Source: Cladosporium halotolerans (Eukaryota). Taken from it: a stretch of 64,000 bases of DNA. Where the stretch lies: assembly GCF_011745625.1 (NCBI RefSeq), contig NW_027191501.1, positions 1-64,000 of the forward strand. Direction: 5' to 3'. Below the pieces are notes generated by a model. The model was not told where the DNA came from and made no database searches. It worked only from the letters and a program-made list of their open reading frames with translations. Shown here piece by piece: positions 21,642 through 26,011 of the stretch (the stretch's first letter is position 1; every line of letters begins with the position of its first letter). The position numbers were made by a program, and so were the translations under genes.

Positions 21642-23597
21642 CTAATCAGGCTTCGCCTTATCCGCCCAACTCGGCACAACCCCCCTGCAAACCCGCACAT
21701 ACTCCTCCCACCTGGTCCTATCCTCCACGACGCCCTCGCCCGTCCAAAACATCGTCCACCCGCTCCCCGGAATCGTCCAGCTCCCACTAGCCCGCTCAAA
21801 ATACCACTTGTTAACCGGATTGTCCACCCTGCTTCGCCAGCAGACTCCATGAGGAAAGCACGTGCGCGCCATGGCCTGGAAGACGATGTCCGCGACGCCC
21901 GCGGAGCCCTGGGATGTCTGGGCGACGGCGAACTTGTCGAGGTAGGGGACGGGATTGGCGGAGCCGGGGGGTTGCTCCCAGGTGAGGATTGCGCCGCCCT
22001 CGTAGTCGCCGGCTATGATGAGGCCGGCGGTGCGGCCGGCGATGCGGGAGAGGTAGTGGTCGACGTCGAGCTTGCGGCGGAAGGAGTCTTCGATGAGGGC
22101 GACGAGGCGGGGGAGGTTGATGCGGGGGTCGGTGCGAAGGTTGAGTGGGCTGGGCGTGTTGGGTGCGGGCGCGGGCCAGCCGATCCAGCGGTCCGCGGAG
22201 GGGATGATCGTGAGCGGCATGCCTTTTTTAACGAGGGTGGCGGTGGGACGGGAGGGGGATGGAGAGGTGTCGGGGGAGGGCAGGCGGGCGAGAGGCAGGG
22301 AGGAAGAGACCAGGGGTTTGTTGGTGAGAAGGTTGTGGATTAGGGTGTTTTTTTGCTGGCGCGTGCCGGTACGGATGGGCTCGCCTTGGGTGCGGCCGCG
22401 GGAGGAGATGGCGGCTTCTTCGGGCGTGATGATGAGGGCAGAGGAGGCGGAGGGCAGCATTGCGAGGCATTGGCGGGTAATGTCAAGGTTGGCGTGGTGT
22501 TGGCGGTATTGTGCTGCGGGGTTGCCGGTGTTGCCGTTTAGGAGTTCTTTGCTGATGGAGTCGAATTCTTGCTCCAGGTTGATGAAGATGTGGGCGCCGT
22601 CTCCGCGGTCCTTGCTAGGGATTCCGCCGACTGGATCGAGCATGATGATGCGATCCAGGGATACCGGGTCGGGATATTCTGCGTGGCTGCCAACTTCAGG
22701 CGAAGCGCCTTGGCCTGACAGCTGGGCAGTCAGGGCTCGCATGACCTCGGCGAGATTTGTTGAGGTCAAGTGTCCAGAGTTGGAATAAGCAAGGGTAGGG
22801 ACGATGGTGACTGCACCTCGCTTGAGCGGGTGCAGCAGAAGCTGAGGCATCGACACAATTGCACCAGTCCCGCCCAAGGAGTCAGCCATGTCCGCACAGC
22901 TCATGGCGTCTGGCACGAAACGTGCACCCTCAGGACTATGGTTGGAAATAGCCTTGACCAAGCGATCGCCTTGTTCGGTGAGCATGTCCCTCCTAGCGTG
23001 CAGGTCCTGGTGATGCACATCGCCCAGATCTACGCAGTCAATGGCGAGCAAAATGCGCATGTCCAAGCGGACGAGCTGGGACAGTGTGGCGGCCAGTCCG
23101 TCCAGAAGGCCATCGTCCAGACTCTCAGGTGACCGCAGTGATGCCAATGCAGTGTGCATAGGCTTAGGCTTGTTGGCAACCTTCTCCGGAACGAGCTCTC
23201 TGGTGAACTGAGGAGTGTCTGCTATTGACCTCGCTGGAGCATAGAGTCCGCCCAAGTTGACGCCCATCCGATCGACGCGGTCCTGATCACGGCGGTGTCG
23301 GGCATTTCGTTCGTCCTGTGGCGATGGTCTCGCAGGTGCTGGCTTCGGTTCCTTGAATCGAGACAGATACTGCTTTGCGTCTCGCTTGGTGGCGTTGGCA
23401 GTCAAGACGTGCATGAACAAGTCTCTGGACACGCGGGGATCCTCGTCCACGCGGGCGGCGGGCGGCTTGCCATTGCTGCGAGGACCAGCGGCGTTGCCAA
23501 ATTGGCGGGATGATTCGTAGGCGGTGAGGCCGGCGACGGTCTTCTTAAGTGCCCCGAACGCGCTTGCCTTTCCAGACGCCAACATAGAGGTAGTCAT
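21642..23597 (-). CDS. ARG2: Mitochondrial amino-acid N-acetyltransferase (N-acetylglutamate synthase), 651 aa
   Basis: ATKRDAKQYL, IIMLDPVGGIP, HIFINLEQEF, LIHNLLTNKP and C-terminal GNAT/DUF619 motifs YLDKFAV, WRSRVDNPVNKWYFERASG. Confidence 0.93.
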   Translation of the reverse strand: MTTSMLASGKASAFGALKKTVAGLTAYESSRQFGNAAGPRSNGKPPAARVDEDPRVSRDLFMHVLTANATKRDAKQYLSRFKEPKPAPARPSPQDERNARHRRDQDRVDRMGVNLGGLYAPARSIADTPQFTRELVPEKVANKPKPMHTALASLRSPESLDDGLLDGLAATLSQLVRLDMRILLAIDCVDLGDVHHQDLHARRDMLTEQGDRLVKAISNHSPEGARFVPDAMSCADMADSLGGTGAIVSMPQLLLHPLKRGAVTIVPTLAYSNSGHLTSTNLAEVMRALTAQLSGQGASPEVGSHAEYPDPVSLDRIIMLDPVGGIPSKDRGDGAHIFINLEQEFDSISKELLNGNTGNPAAQYRQHHANLDITRQCLAMLPSASSALIITPEEAAISSRGRTQGEPIRTGTRQQKNTLIHNLLTNKPLVSSSLPLARLPSPDTSPSPSRPTATLVKKGMPLTIIPSADRWIGWPAPAPNTPSPLNLRTDPRINLPRLVALIEDSFRRKLDVDHYLSRIAGRTAGLIIAGDYEGGAILTWEQPPGSANPVPYLDKFAVAQTSQGSAGVADIVFQAMARTCFPHGVCWRSRVDNPVNKWYFERASGSWTIPGSGWTMFWTGEGVVEDRTRWEEYVRVCRGVVPSWADKAKPD

Positions 23598-23604
23598 TTT
23601 CCAT
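23545..23604 (-). promoter_or_regulatory. Out-of-frame uORF overlapping the NAG synthase start (MENDYLYVGVWKGKRVRGT*), arginine-attenuator-like
   Basis: ATG at 23604 (GGCATGG), 7 nt upstream of the main ATG at 23597, ends at TAA 23547-23545. The ORF is read directly; its function is inferred. Confidence 0.5.
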
Positions 23605-23674
23605 GCCTAGAGCGCGGGCGGATTCTCGTGGGTGAGTGGTGAAGTGAAGACAGAGCGAGGCGCCTCAGGAAGCC

Positions 23675-23680
23675 GAGTCA
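23675..23680 (-). promoter_or_regulatory. Possible Cpc1/Gcn4 site (TGACTC) in the ARG2-CYS4 divergent promoter
   Basis: TGACTC core about 80 bp upstream of an amino-acid biosynthesis gene. Confidence 0.35.
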
Positions 23681-24343
23681 CGCTAGGTGCAAAGAAACGC
23701 GGTGCACGGCGCAGGATGAGCCATTAATGCCCAGGGTCGGTGAGGGCGGGCGAGCGGTGCTGCAGACGACGCTGCGTGATTTTATCAGGGCGGTTAGTCA
23801 GAAGTCAGAGGCAGAGCAGAAACACTGCAGGGCTATGGAGGTGCGAATGCTGTATAAGGTACCTTCGGCGTCAGGCGCAAGCAGTAAACGCGGCTTGCAT
23901 GAGCGATAACTCGATAGGTGACACATCTTTGCGTGGGAATGCGACGCCTATCAATCGCCGGCATCGGCGGAGACGGCAACAAGGCCGTTTTGTGTCGCGC
24001 GCATCGGCCAGTCGCCCGTCTCTGCCCTACGCAGCCATCGTTATATAAAGAAACGGCGCTCCCGCAGATCTCACGGCGTCTCGAGTCCCACGCCTCGCTG
24101 CCTTCGGCCTAATAACCTCCATCAGAGTCTGAGGGCAGAAAATGCTGCTGCTTAGGCCGGGCGTGTTTTGCTTCGGCTAGTGCCGGCTGCCCTGACCAGA
24201 GACGCCGAATGGCGAGACAAAGCGCCGACAGCACGAATTCTCATGCCACCCAGGTAGGACCTCATCCCACTTCTGCCCTGCCCTCCCCTCCCCTCCTCTG
24301 CCCCTCCACACTCCCAGTCACACATCCGCAAACACCTCCCACC

Positions 24344-25078
24344 ATGTCCCACCTCTCGTCGCGCGCCCCGCGCCAGCCGCCGGCGGTCATGGACAGCATC
24401 CTGGAGAACATCGGCCAAACGCCTCTGGTCCGCCTAAACCGCATCCCGGAGTCGCTGGGCGTCGACTGCAAAATCTACGCCAAGTGCGAGTTCTTCAACG
24501 CCGGCGGCTCCGTCAAGGACCGCATCGCCCTGCGCATGGTCGAAGCCGCCGAGAAGGAGGGCCGCATCCGGCCCGGACACAGCGTGCTGATCGAGCCCAC
24601 GAGCGGCAACACGGGCATTGGCCTCGCCCTCGTCGGCGCCGTCAAGGGCTACCGCACCATCATCACCCTGCCGGAGAAGATGAGCAGCGAGAAGGTCTCC
24701 GTCCTGAAAGCCCTGGGCGCCGAGATCATCCGCACGCCGACCAGCGCCGCCTGGGACGCCCCGGAGAGCCACATTGGCGTCGCGCGCCGGCTGGAGAAGG
24801 AGATTCCCGGCGGCGTCATCCTGGACCAGTACGCGAACCCGAACAACCCGCTCGCGCACGAGATGGGAACCGCGGAGGAGATCTGCGAGCAAGTGTCGAA
24901 GGTCGAGGGCAAGTTCGCGGCGCTCGTGGCTGGCGCCGGCACCGGCGGCACCATCACTGGCCTCTCGCGCGGCATCCGCAAGCACCACGGAAAGGACGTC
25001 AAGATCGTCGCCGCAGACCCCATGGGCTCAATCCTGGCCGTGCCCGCCAGCCTGAACGACGAGGGCAAGGACAAGCCG

Positions 25079-25113
<35 letters not shown>

Positions 25114-26011
25114 GGACGTGCTGGCGCAGAACGAAGTCGACACGTGGTACAAGACCAACGACGTCGACAGCTTCTACTGGGCGCGCCGGCTGATCCGCGA
25201 GGAGGGCCTGCTGTGCGGCGGCTCCGCGGGTTCCGCCATGAGCGCCTGCGTGCAGGCCATCAAGGGCCTGAACCTCGGCAAGGGCGACGCGATCGTCGTC
25301 ATCCTCCCCGACAGCATCCGCTCGTACCTCTCCAAGTTCGTCGACGACGACTGGCTCGCCGCCAACGACCTCCTCCCGCCTTCTCCCCCTCTCACCGCCC
25401 CCGTCACCCCGGACCTGCAGCCCGCCGACGCCGCGGGCCAGGAGAAGAAACTCGCCGCCCCCAACGGCCACACCCCCACCAAGCAGCCCAAGAAGGGCGA
25501 CTACGCCAACCACACCGTGTCCGACCTGCGCCTCAAACCCATCCAGACAATCCCCCTCACGGCCTCCGTCGACGACGCCGTCGAGCTCATGCGCGACAAA
25601 GGCTTCGACCAGATCCCCGTCACGTCCTCGAAATCCACCCGCCTCGTCGGCATGGTCACGCTGGGCAACTGCCTGTCGTACCTCTCGTCCGGCCGCGTGC
25701 AGGTCTCCTCGCCCGTGTCCGAGGTCATGTTCAGCTTCTCGAAGCTCGACGAGGTCAAGCCGCTGGAGAAGTTCCCGGCGCTGACGGAGGGCGACGAGAG
25801 CAAGAGGCAGTTCGTCGAGGTCACGATGCGCACGCCGCTGGAGGTGCTGGCGCGGTTTTTCGAGTGGAATGCCGCGGCGGTCATCACGGAGAGGGACAGC
25901 GAGGGGGCGGGCGCGGGCGTTGGGGGTTTGAGGGCGGTCGCGGTTGCGACGAAGGTCGATTTGTTGACTTGGTTGGTTAGGCAGGGGAGGCTGCAGAGTG
26001 CGCAGAAGTAG
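24344..26011 (+). CDS. CYS4: Cystathionine beta-synthase, 555 aa, intronless
   Basis: PLP Lys motif NAGGSVKDRIA, EPTSGNTG, GAGTGGT and a C-terminal CBS domain pair (GFDQIPV). Confidence 0.96.

Follow-up and report, generated by a model that had tools for sequence, protein, structure and literature searches.

The closest described counterpart of the element analysed here is the fungal arginine attenuator peptide (AAP), encoded in a uORF (upstream open reading frame). It is a main model of how a nascent chain, jointly with a small molecule, stops the ribosome, and it is, to our knowledge, the only established arginine-sensing nascent peptide in eukaryotes, where it acts on CPA1 / arg-2. Its core motif is DY[LI]SDH[LI]W[KR], and its C-terminus is dispensable. 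N-acetylglutamate synthase (NAGS) is otherwise known as a feedback-inhibited enzyme. Published work on the AAP describes a peptide of 24 residues in which Asp-12 contacts uL4 and the substitution D12N abolishes the response (PMC7038982), and in which Trp-19 is important (PMC3299997).

Other ligand-responsive uORFs and arrest peptides include the AdoMetDC uORFs, which respond to polyamines, CGS1, which responds to AdoMet, and uORF2 of hCMV gp48. According to PMC7038982, nascent peptides of this kind act in cis to control an enzyme that belongs to the pathway whose product they sense. The uORF on NAGS described below shares with them the conservation of its peptide at the amino acid level, and an action in cis that we infer for it. 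It differs in having no sequence similarity to them, and for NAGS both the stalling and the ligand are putative. Overlapping uORFs and close AUG pairs form a further group. In the two-AUG leader of TYMV the spacing is 7 nt, equal to that between the upstream ATG (uATG) and the NAGS start. Like the TYMV leader and uORF2 of ATF4 (PMC11058473), the NAGS uORF has an out-of-frame uAUG and ends inside the main ORF. In all of them the main ORF relies, or at NAGS would rely, on ribosomes that bypass the first AUG. The effect of those overlapping uORFs is peptide-independent, whereas no other feature of the NAGS uORF is as conserved as its peptide. The literature searched yielded no account of a fungal NAGS gene with a uORF.

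A short reading frame overlapping the NAGS start

The window, a stretch of 64,000 nucleotides from Cladosporium halotolerans (contig NW_027191501.1), carries on its minus strand an intronless NAGS gene of the ARG2 / arg-14 type at 21642..23597. The encoded protein has 651 aa and matches the Pfam family NAT (PF04768) with an E-value of 2.9e-41; its closest named relative, at 83% identity, is from Cladosporium fusiforme. The main start codon lies at 23595..23597, and a second Met codon of the enzyme frame is found at 23585. A TAG in the NAGS frame at 23607..23609, three codons upstream of the main ATG, rules out a longer N-terminus.

An ATG on the same strand at 23602..23604, 7 nt upstream of the NAGS ATG, opens a 19-codon ORF, MENDYLYVGVWKGKRVRGT, which with its stop codon TAA (23545..23547) covers 23545..23604. 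NAGS is in the +1 frame relative to this uORF, so that the two frames overlap out of register: the main start codon sits within uORF codons 3-4 (AAT G), and both candidate starts, 23597 and 23585, fall inside the uORF. The original prediction had described exactly this arrangement, on which the sequence, the ORF list and the translation agree. The conserved core of the peptide comprises codons 2-14 at 23563..23601 and reads ENDYLYV[GNS][VI]WKG[KN] across relatives. Codon 17, an Arg codon, lies at 23554..23556 (alignment columns 49-51). Asp-4 and Trp-11 are seven residues apart in a short peptide that places D4 just three residues from the N-terminus. The C-terminal half of the peptide is basic (WKGKRVR).

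Conservation and selection on the short frame

The comparison set consisted of 14 metagenome loci in which the NAGS 5' end is covered and NAGS is 53-80% identical to that of the window; they give 12 distinct sequences, the window included. The same uORF is present in 14/14 loci as an AUG-initiated ORF that overlaps the main start at an equal position, the arrangement expected of a conserved-peptide uORF (CPuORF). The original prediction had named conservation of the uATG and of the D/Y/W codons in relatives as its first check, and the outcome is much stronger than expected, with D4, Y5 and W11 invariant in 12/12 sequences. Residues M1-V8, W11-G13 and R17 as a whole do not vary in any of the 12. 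Length is 19 codons in 11 of them and 17 in one (L014). The position of the stop codon is kept while its identity varies among TAA, TAG and TGA, and the last two residues are variable.

Both AUGs are conserved, ATGGAAAATGA being invariant in 12/12 sequences, in keeping with an overlapping uORF whose out-of-frame uAUG opens a frame that ends inside the main ORF. The uATG has a purine at -3 and G at +4 throughout the 12, and in 11 it is the first ATG of its own frame after the preceding stop; only L026 has an in-frame upstream Met, more than 300 nt upstream of the uATG. The uORF codon AAT, in which the NAGS AUG begins, is invariant although other uORF codons ending in Y vary. From the equivalent of the ATG at 23597 the main NAGS frame is open for 651-683 aa in 11/12 sequences, and in the remaining one (L008) it runs off its contig.

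In the aligned loci, DNA conservation starts precisely at the uATG. Ungapped identity is 0.90 over uORF nt 1-42, as against 0.30 in the region -60..-1 and 0.36 downstream, in the next 60 nt of the presequence. Within uORF codons 2-14, variable columns number 2, 1 and 9 of 13 at codon positions 1, 2 and 3, respectively (9/13 at third positions versus 3/26 at positions 1 and 2 combined; Fisher p = 5e-4). Read in the uORF frame, these codons give a pN/pS of 0.07, and the same DNA read in the NAGS frame gives 1.49; over codons 2-19 the uORF-frame value is 0.22. Those wobble bases of the NAGS frame that form the first bases of the uORF codons for D4, Y5, L6, Y7, V8, W11, K12, G13 and K14 are invariant in 12/12 sequences, while second bases of the NAGS frame vary, with enzyme residues T/I, M/T, L/W, S/F/Y and S/N at the sites concerned. 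Trp has a single codon and NAGS residues G9-K10 are likewise invariant, so that the W-K-G block may in part be kept for the sake of both frames. As judged by substitution pattern, the alignment shows purifying selection on the uORF frame and not on the presequence frame, and on the amino acids of the uORF rather than on nucleotides alone. The reservation that came with the original prediction, that the overlapping mitochondrial presequence frame might explain the uORF sequence, is removed by this pattern.

The codon-position data already contradict an untranslated uORF whose conservation would stem from the mitochondrial presequence, from some element in the DNA or RNA, or from a gene on the opposite strand. 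Such an explanation could appeal to the NAGS-frame N-terminus M-x-[TA]-[ST]-x-W-A, which recurs in other classes at greater depth; within the clade, however, it has to contend with the pN/pS of 1.49 in the NAGS frame, with variation at the second codon positions of that frame, and with the low identity of the presequence immediately downstream. A conserved RNA structure was rejected, the consensus having only 8 weak pairs at -5.3 kcal/mol, and the antisense frame shows no sign of selection: in the sole open one the variable sites fall on the first codon position. We regard this alternative as extremely improbable. The third-position variation, the pN/pS of 0.07 and the lack of an RNA fold or antisense explanation together indicate that the uORF is very probably translated, as a CPuORF. 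The alignments show its peptide to be strongly constrained in one fungal order-level clade.

Two further candidate readings of the region were set aside on inspection. The third sense frame contains stop codons. As for an alternative first exon that splices to NAGS, inspection by eye shows neither a GT donor conserved after codons 13-19 nor an alignable acceptor region downstream.

Strong selection at the peptide level would also suit a stable 19-residue micropeptide with a function in trans, whether on NAGS/NAGK, in mitochondria or elsewhere, the overlap serving only to couple expression of the two products; the basic C-terminal half could be read in the same way. The strict position relative to the NAGS AUG in 12/12 sequences and the variable last two residues suit an action in cis better, and the peptide has no homologue in Pfam or PDB, so that we consider a role in trans very unlikely.

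The Arg codons at positions 15 and 17 could instead make the uORF a sensor of arginine hunger, in which scarce Arg-tRNA would cause a pause, the following scanning subunit would queue close to the NAGS AUG, and more NAGS would be made; or else the peptide could be fused to NAGS by a +1 frameshift where the uORF stops. R17 is unchanged despite synonymous changes (at the first position in 1/12 sequences and at the third in 1/12), and by arithmetic a ribosome pausing with its P site on codon 14 would be about 30 nt from the NAGS AUG. Residue 15, however, is Cys in place of Arg in 2/12 sequences. The frameshift version fits the +1 relation of the NAGS frame to the uORF, but its shift site is not conserved, the last sense codon being ACT, CCT, TCT or AAT, and it would leave the conserved NAGS AUG unneeded. 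Neither version accounts for the conservation of residues 2-14, and we judge the two together highly improbable. A peptide-dependent action of the uORF in cis is what we consider more likely than not.

Comparison with the arginine attenuator peptide

The NAGS uORF and the AAP uORF are both short (19 versus 24-25 codons), both lie on a gene of arginine synthesis and both encode a conserved peptide. As the original prediction had pointed out for D-Y-L-x3-V-W-K, the spacing of seven between Asp and Trp is the same, D4-W11 corresponding to Asp-12 to Trp-19, and in the uORF this pair is invariant in 12/12 sequences. Each peptide also has Y-L after the Asp, a basic residue after the Trp and a variable C-terminal tail, and at termination the conserved block would occupy the same part of the exit tunnel. 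Against the AAP motif quoted in the original prediction, the uORF peptide matches 5 of 9 positions (D, Y, L, W and K), with V a conservative replacement for L/I. The central S-D-H, whose absence had been flagged from the start, is replaced by Y-V-G in 12/12 sequences. By composition, the probability that a random 19-residue peptide agrees with this motif at five or more of its nine positions is about 1e-3, a figure obtained post hoc. Every orthologous uORF, in the window as in 13 distinct loci, has the pattern DY[LI]x3[LIV]W[KR], which is found nowhere else in the 1,035,590 six-frame codons of the window and related loci, where 0.05 occurrences are expected. Its recurrence is beyond chance.

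The differences are several. The AAP is encoded on the gene for carbamoyl-phosphate synthetase's small subunit (CPA1 / arg-2) and its uORF ends upstream of the main start; the host here is NAGS, and the uORF overlaps the main AUG out of frame. D4 stands 15 residues and W11 8 residues before the C-terminus, as against 12 and 5 for their counterparts in the 24-residue AAP, which shifts the geometry by three residues unless the stall occurs at codon 16. The AAP is described as conserved in many fungi (PMC11550727), whereas the NAGS uORF is restricted to one order-level clade. Six uORF peptides (from the window, L001, L002, L011, L012 and L017), each brought to 20 aa by adding the codon that naturally precedes it, hit 0 Pfam families at E-values up to 10, in a scan whose HMMER filters drop most matches above E of about 0.1 and which was run without a true AAP as positive control. 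A PDB sequence search with the uORF peptide returned 0 matching chains. Membership in the AAP family is not supported, given the Pfam result, the absent SDH, the different gene, the overlap with the main start and the confinement to one clade.

The missing AAP profile match leaves room for a peptide-dependent arrest or attenuator uORF that is constitutive or answers to another signal, such as ornithine, citrulline, glutamate, polyamines or the general state of translation, its resemblance to the AAP being coincidental. All of the conservation evidence fits such a uORF equally well, and a conserved Trp together with an acidic residue is common to several arrest peptides, as in TnaC (W12/D16) and the AAP (D12/W19) (PMC3299997). 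The pathway context and the five matched AAP positions weakly favour arginine instead, and nothing points to another ligand. We hold this reading to be unlikely, while giving it real weight.

Range of the peptide, a more widespread upstream AUG and a candidate mechanism

Compatibility with the same uORF peptide can be read from NAGS protein sequences as well, where it indicates compatibility only. Of 120 orthologue N-termini, 40 are fully compatible, and 11 further orthologues that start at Met-5 are compatible over the overlapped part; among these are named Cladosporium, Hortaea, Friedmanniomyces, Cercospora, Pseudocercospora, Zasmidium and Septoria. Some N-termini from Mycosphaerellaceae are incompatible with the full peptide, namely those of Lecanosticta (P0037), Zymoseptoria (P0071) and, partly, Fulvia (P0048).

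The pair of start codons has a wider distribution than the peptide. ATG-N4-ATG occurs at the presumptive NAGS start in 46/66 loci, namely the 14 of Capnodiales type and 32 more distant ones, which include Aureobasidium-like and Lecanoromycetes-like loci; L029 shows the pair as well. Five other clades have an out-of-frame uATG 7 nt ahead of the start, but the peptides encoded there are unrelated and lack the third-position bias. The AAP-like residues are confined to one clade, and the unrelated peptides at the same-position uATG elsewhere indicate that in its ancestral role the uAUG was not dependent on this peptide.

This distribution is also what would be expected of a sequence-independent decoy start, at which the uAUG diverts ribosomes so that NAGS is kept low or made dependent on start-codon stringency or eIF2 status, and the peptide has no role. 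Closely spaced AUGs are said to share ribosomes, an observation attributed to Matsuda and Dreher in 2006. In the Capnodiales-type clade, however, a decoy fails to explain the pN/pS of 0.07, the invariant wobble bases of the NAGS frame, the kept length and the invariant R17, and we consider a decoy distinctly unlikely.

A peptide that arrests its own ribosome could work as follows. Scanning ribosomes would reach the uAUG first, in its strong context of purine at -3 and G at +4, and initiation there would preclude NAGS synthesis, so that the enzyme would be made only by ribosomes that bypass the uAUG and initiate 7 nt further on. When the ribosome reaches the end of the uORF, core residues 2-14, which are 5-17 residues away from the C-terminus, would be in the upper part of the exit tunnel and in its constriction, and the peptide would most likely arrest the ribosome there. 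With the arrest on codons ~16-19, the ribosome would stand 40-55 nt inside the NAGS ORF and would block both scanning ribosomes and those begun at the NAGS AUG. The most likely effector would be arginine, the end product of the pathway, since NAGS is the first enzyme of arginine synthesis and D-Y-L, W-K and the D-to-W spacing match positions important in the AAP. High arginine would then lower synthesis of the first enzyme, in parallel to the AAP on CPA1/arg-2. Taken as a whole, this chain, from cis-acting arrest peptide to arginine as ligand, is the explanation that we favour among those considered, though we rate it as somewhat less likely than not. The shortness of the peptide and the nearness of D4 to its N-terminus speak against it, as do the shifted geometry and the missing S-D-H.

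A bolder and more doubtful reading is that the uORF encodes a second arginine-sensing arrest peptide, one that evolved independently in the lineage of Capnodiales, Mycosphaerellales and Cladosporiales, was derived from an older peptide-independent uAUG and converged on the Asp...Trp-basic signature of the AAP. The overlap with the main start would in that event put the arrested ribosome inside the NAGS coding region, blocking scanning and elongating ribosomes alike, an arrangement not described for the AAP. If this were true, a second, non-homologous peptide sharing only the Asp/Trp signature would reveal the features needed for arginine sensing in the tunnel, and a translational control point would be added at NAGS. 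Even with a ligand other than arginine, the locus is a clear natural example of dual coding, with the constraint on the short frame rather than on the enzyme frame, and it illustrates how an old decoy AUG may acquire a peptide function. The clade holds important crop pathogens and extremotolerant black fungi, in which arginine supply matters, and its gene models should annotate the NAGS uORF.

GCN4-type sites (TGACTC) upstream occur in only 4/12 sequences, at differing distances, and are not a conserved feature. Contigs from 4/4 runs, one per run, whose RNA nature is a guess and which may derive from DNA, span position 23604, at 23075-23859, 23464-23722, 23000-24075 and 23555-23781; the upstream ends of these four contigs, whichever the material, differ from one another.

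An upstream frame across the NAGS start

The uORF encodes MENDYLYVGVWKGKRVRGT and runs on the minus strand from an ATG at 23604 to a stop codon at 23547-23545. The strand here has TAG GC ATG GAA AAT GAC TAC CTC TAT GTT GGC GTC TGG AAA GGC AAG CGC GTT CGG GGC ACT TAA. The ATG at 23597, 7 nt downstream and in the +1 frame, begins an uninterrupted ORF of 651 codons (21642-23597, minus strand) with the NAT domain of N-acetylglutamate synthase (NAGS; PF04768, E 2.9e-41), the first enzyme of arginine synthesis. A Cladosporium fusiforme protein shares 83% identity with the encoded enzyme, and annotated mitochondrial amino-acid acetyltransferases from many Capnodiales-type Dothideomycetes share 53-60%. 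A TAG in the NAGS frame three codons upstream of the ATG excludes a longer N-terminus, and the next in-frame Met codon, 23585, likewise lies within the uORF. The original prediction, a 19-codon uORF with this ATG, stop and 7-nt offset that encloses both NAGS Met codons, was right in every detail. Among four mapped runs, the sole difference within the uORF is a plus-strand G>A at 23549 in one run, giving T19I at its variable last residue; the conserved core is variant-free, in runs with 4 to 34 differences from the window across the mapped stretch.

Forty NAGS proteins were aligned, and the alignment was used to scan metagenome contigs. The scan patterns, VPYLDKFA and NPVNKWY, belong to the C-terminal catalytic part, so the scan is blind to the uORF. 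It returned 470 pattern matches, 415 of them confirmed relatives. The best 80 of the 415 were kept, and 68 were left after removal of 12 loci without the gene's 5' part (match beginning past residue 60). Fourteen of the 68 match NAGS from residue 1 at 53-80% identity. All 14 have the uORF at the same place, with D4, Y5 and W11 retained, and so bear out the expected conservation of the uATG and the D, Y and W codons in related fungi; the motif is absent from the other 54 of these best-scoring loci, all at no more than 51% NAGS identity. Together with the window, the 14 loci give 12 distinct uORF sequences.

The core D-Y-L-Y-V-G-V-W-K-G-K is fully compatible with the N-termini of 40 of 120 orthologues, judged in the overlapping frame from protein sequences, in which wobble bases are invisible, so that a match means compatibility and not proof. 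Another 11, beginning at Met-5, are compatible over the overlapped part, V-G-V-W-K-G-K. The compatible named genera include Cladosporium, Hortaea, Meristemomyces, Saxophila, Salinomyces, Zasmidium, Pseudocercospora, Elasticomyces, Friedmanniomyces, Recurvomyces, Septoria and Cercospora. The remaining 69 contain many N-termini from truncated gene models or from other clades. Within the Mycosphaerellaceae, a few appear to have diverged from the peptide: Lecanosticta (P0037), Zymoseptoria (P0071) and, in part, Fulvia (P0048).

The reading frame under selection

The uORF alignment is gap-free, and the string ATGGAAAATGA is invariant in all 12 distinct sequences. Ungapped identity is 0.90 over uORF nt 1-42, 0.67 over nt 43-60 and 0.36 over the 60 nt of NAGS presequence that follow; the 60 nt ahead of the uATG cannot be aligned (mean 0.30). 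Across uORF codons 2-14, the variable columns at codon positions 1, 2 and 3 number 2, 1 and 9, of 13 each (Fisher test of position 3 versus positions 1+2, p = 5e-4). Since each third position of the uORF is a second position of NAGS, the enzyme N-terminus varies (T/I, M/T, L/W, S/F/Y and S/N) while the uORF peptide stays constant. Core pN/pS is 0.07 in the uORF frame (codons 2-14) versus 1.49 in the NAGS frame of the same DNA (NAGS codons 2-12). The NAGS wobble bases that form the first base of the D4, Y5, L6, Y7, V8, W11, K12, G13 and K14 codons never vary. Variable uORF residues are 9, 10, 14, 15, 16, 18 and 19; R17 is retained despite synonymous changes. Eleven of the 12 sequences have a uORF of 19 codons, with stop codons of differing identity. 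Both starts are preserved, since the AAT codon with the NAGS AUG never changes, and the uAUG context, likewise in all 12, is a purine at -3 with G at +4.

This pattern of substitution points to a translated uORF whose peptide is held by strong purifying selection, which provides evolutionary evidence that the uAUG lies within the mRNA. Contigs from four runs span the uAUG, from material that may be DNA; that the uORF escapes translation altogether is scarcely credible beside the constancy of its peptide. Comparative analysis has shown a conserved-peptide uORF, translated on the evidence of its selection pattern, whose strong-context AUG precedes, and competes with, that of NAGS. A decoy uAUG that works independently of the peptide, a reading at odds with the low uORF-frame pN/pS, is rather improbable. 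Sensing of hunger at Arg codons, for which R17 would be apt, or a +1 frameshift into the NAGS frame, would not call for an invariant core and is very improbable.

A conserved RNA fold was rejected, as RNAalifold gives only 8 weak pairs. Also rejected were the third sense frame, which contains stop codons, and an antisense gene, the single open antisense frame having variable sites at its first codon position. In the NAGS frame, S/T-x-W-A recurs between classes, where the differences fall on third positions of NAGS codons; within the Capnodiales-type clade it is the uORF frame, not the NAGS frame, that is constrained. These few sequences suggest that the constrained frame at the NAGS N-terminus has switched over time.

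Resemblance to the arginine attenuator peptide

The arginine attenuator peptide (AAP), encoded by a uORF of N. crassa arg-2 and S. cerevisiae CPA1, has the core motif DY[LI]SDH[LI]W[KR] within a minimal domain. The NAGS uORF had been proposed as AAP-like and arginine-sensing. By membership tests it is no AAP: a Pfam scan of six uORF peptides at E up to 10, run without an AAP positive control, matched no family, and a PDB chain search with the peptide found no match. The central S-D-H is missing, the host gene differs, and the overlap of the uORF with the main start is an arrangement unlike that of the AAP. What stands of the proposed likeness is D, Y, L, W and K, five of nine motif positions, with V in place of L/I as a conservative change, a notable resemblance in sequence; a random 19-mer would reach this with a probability of about 1e-3 by composition, a post hoc figure. 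The shared residues include counterparts of Asp-12 and Trp-19 of the AAP. Asp-12 is described as touching uL4 at the tunnel constriction, with D12N abolishing the arginine response (PMC7038982), and Trp-19 as important and located near the U2609 equivalent (PMC3299997). Counted back from the C-terminus, D4 and W11 lie at distances of 15 and 8 residues, compared with 12 and 5 in the 24-residue AAP, a similar but shifted geometry.

The uORF peptide probably acts in cis, from within the exit tunnel. A micropeptide acting in trans would also be conserved, but the strict link of the uORF to the position of the NAGS AUG suits a cis role better, and this reading is quite improbable. The cis-acting peptide would arrest the ribosome near the uORF end, 40-55 nt inside the NAGS ORF, with arginine as effector; this whole chain is a tentative reading that falls somewhat short of probable. 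Arrest by the peptide with another ligand, or none, would fit the same conservation and the lack of a Pfam match, though less readily a gene of arginine synthesis, and is unlikely. Full-text searches of freely available papers turned up no account of a uORF on the NAGS of fungi. Both the host gene and the overlapping layout would be new for a conserved-peptide uORF of this possibly ligand-sensing kind.

Upstream ATGs in distant fungi and the NAGS promoter region

Distant loci (39-51% NAGS identity) again have an out-of-frame ATG 7 nt before the presumptive NAGS start (L018, L021, L023, L024/25, L027/68, L030, L031, L033, L035-L042, L044, L045/47, L050, L060/75, L066, L070, L072, L073, L074/76, L077/78 and, likewise, L029). 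The ATG-N4-ATG pair occurs in 46 of the 66 loci with enough upstream sequence among the best 80 of 415, namely 14 of Capnodiales type and 32 others, and in several cases independent gene models begin at its second ATG (P0089, P0093, P0101, P0102). The distant lineages are Aureobasidium-like, with one group's N-terminus matching named Aureobasidium proteins; Lecanoromycetes-like, with L035 and relatives closest to, for example, Lasallia and Usnea; and unnamed. Their uORFs, of 5 to about 36 codons, start M-[NKRH]-[NH]-[DE] and are otherwise unrelated to one another and to MENDYLYV. Five distant clades of 3-4 sequences each show no uORF-frame codon bias, with variable columns spread evenly over the three positions. 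We infer an ancient origin within Pezizomycotina for the overlapping decoy uAUG on NAGS, with the peptide becoming functional later, in the Capnodiales-type lineage.

The other 20 of the 66 loci lack the pair, and some, such as L046, L049, L051 and L057/L059, have instead an out-of-frame ATG 16 nt before the presumptive start. Three of these encode similar peptides, MSPRA[ND]G.S.SH.SSCEVVQEA..., and may represent a second conserved type of overlapping uORF on NAGS. In the clade of L066, L070, L072 and L074/L076 the uORF likewise has 19 codons, and its stop lies 2 nt ahead of a GTGAGT resembling a 5' splice site for exon 1; if so used, the stop would fall just before the exon junction.

Upstream of the uATG by about 100-110 nt, at window 23703-23714 (minus strand), is CTGCGCCGTGCA, preceded by a CAAT-like element. 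It is common to all six distinct Cladosporium-like sequences (window, L006, L008, L026, L001, L002), in which the surrounding leader or promoter has diverged, and was not found in the -120..-1 region of more distant loci; a role as promoter or regulatory element is possible. A half site of GCN4/CPC1 type, TGACTC, precedes the uATG by 76 nt (23675-23680, minus strand), with similar sites at -47, -40 and -107 in L001, L002 and L015, in only 4 of the 12 sequences. NAGS shares an intergenic region of 611 nt with a divergent neighbour (24209-26011, plus strand) that encodes a cystathionine beta-synthase-like protein of 600 residues, in which a PLP-dependent enzyme domain is combined with a CBS domain.
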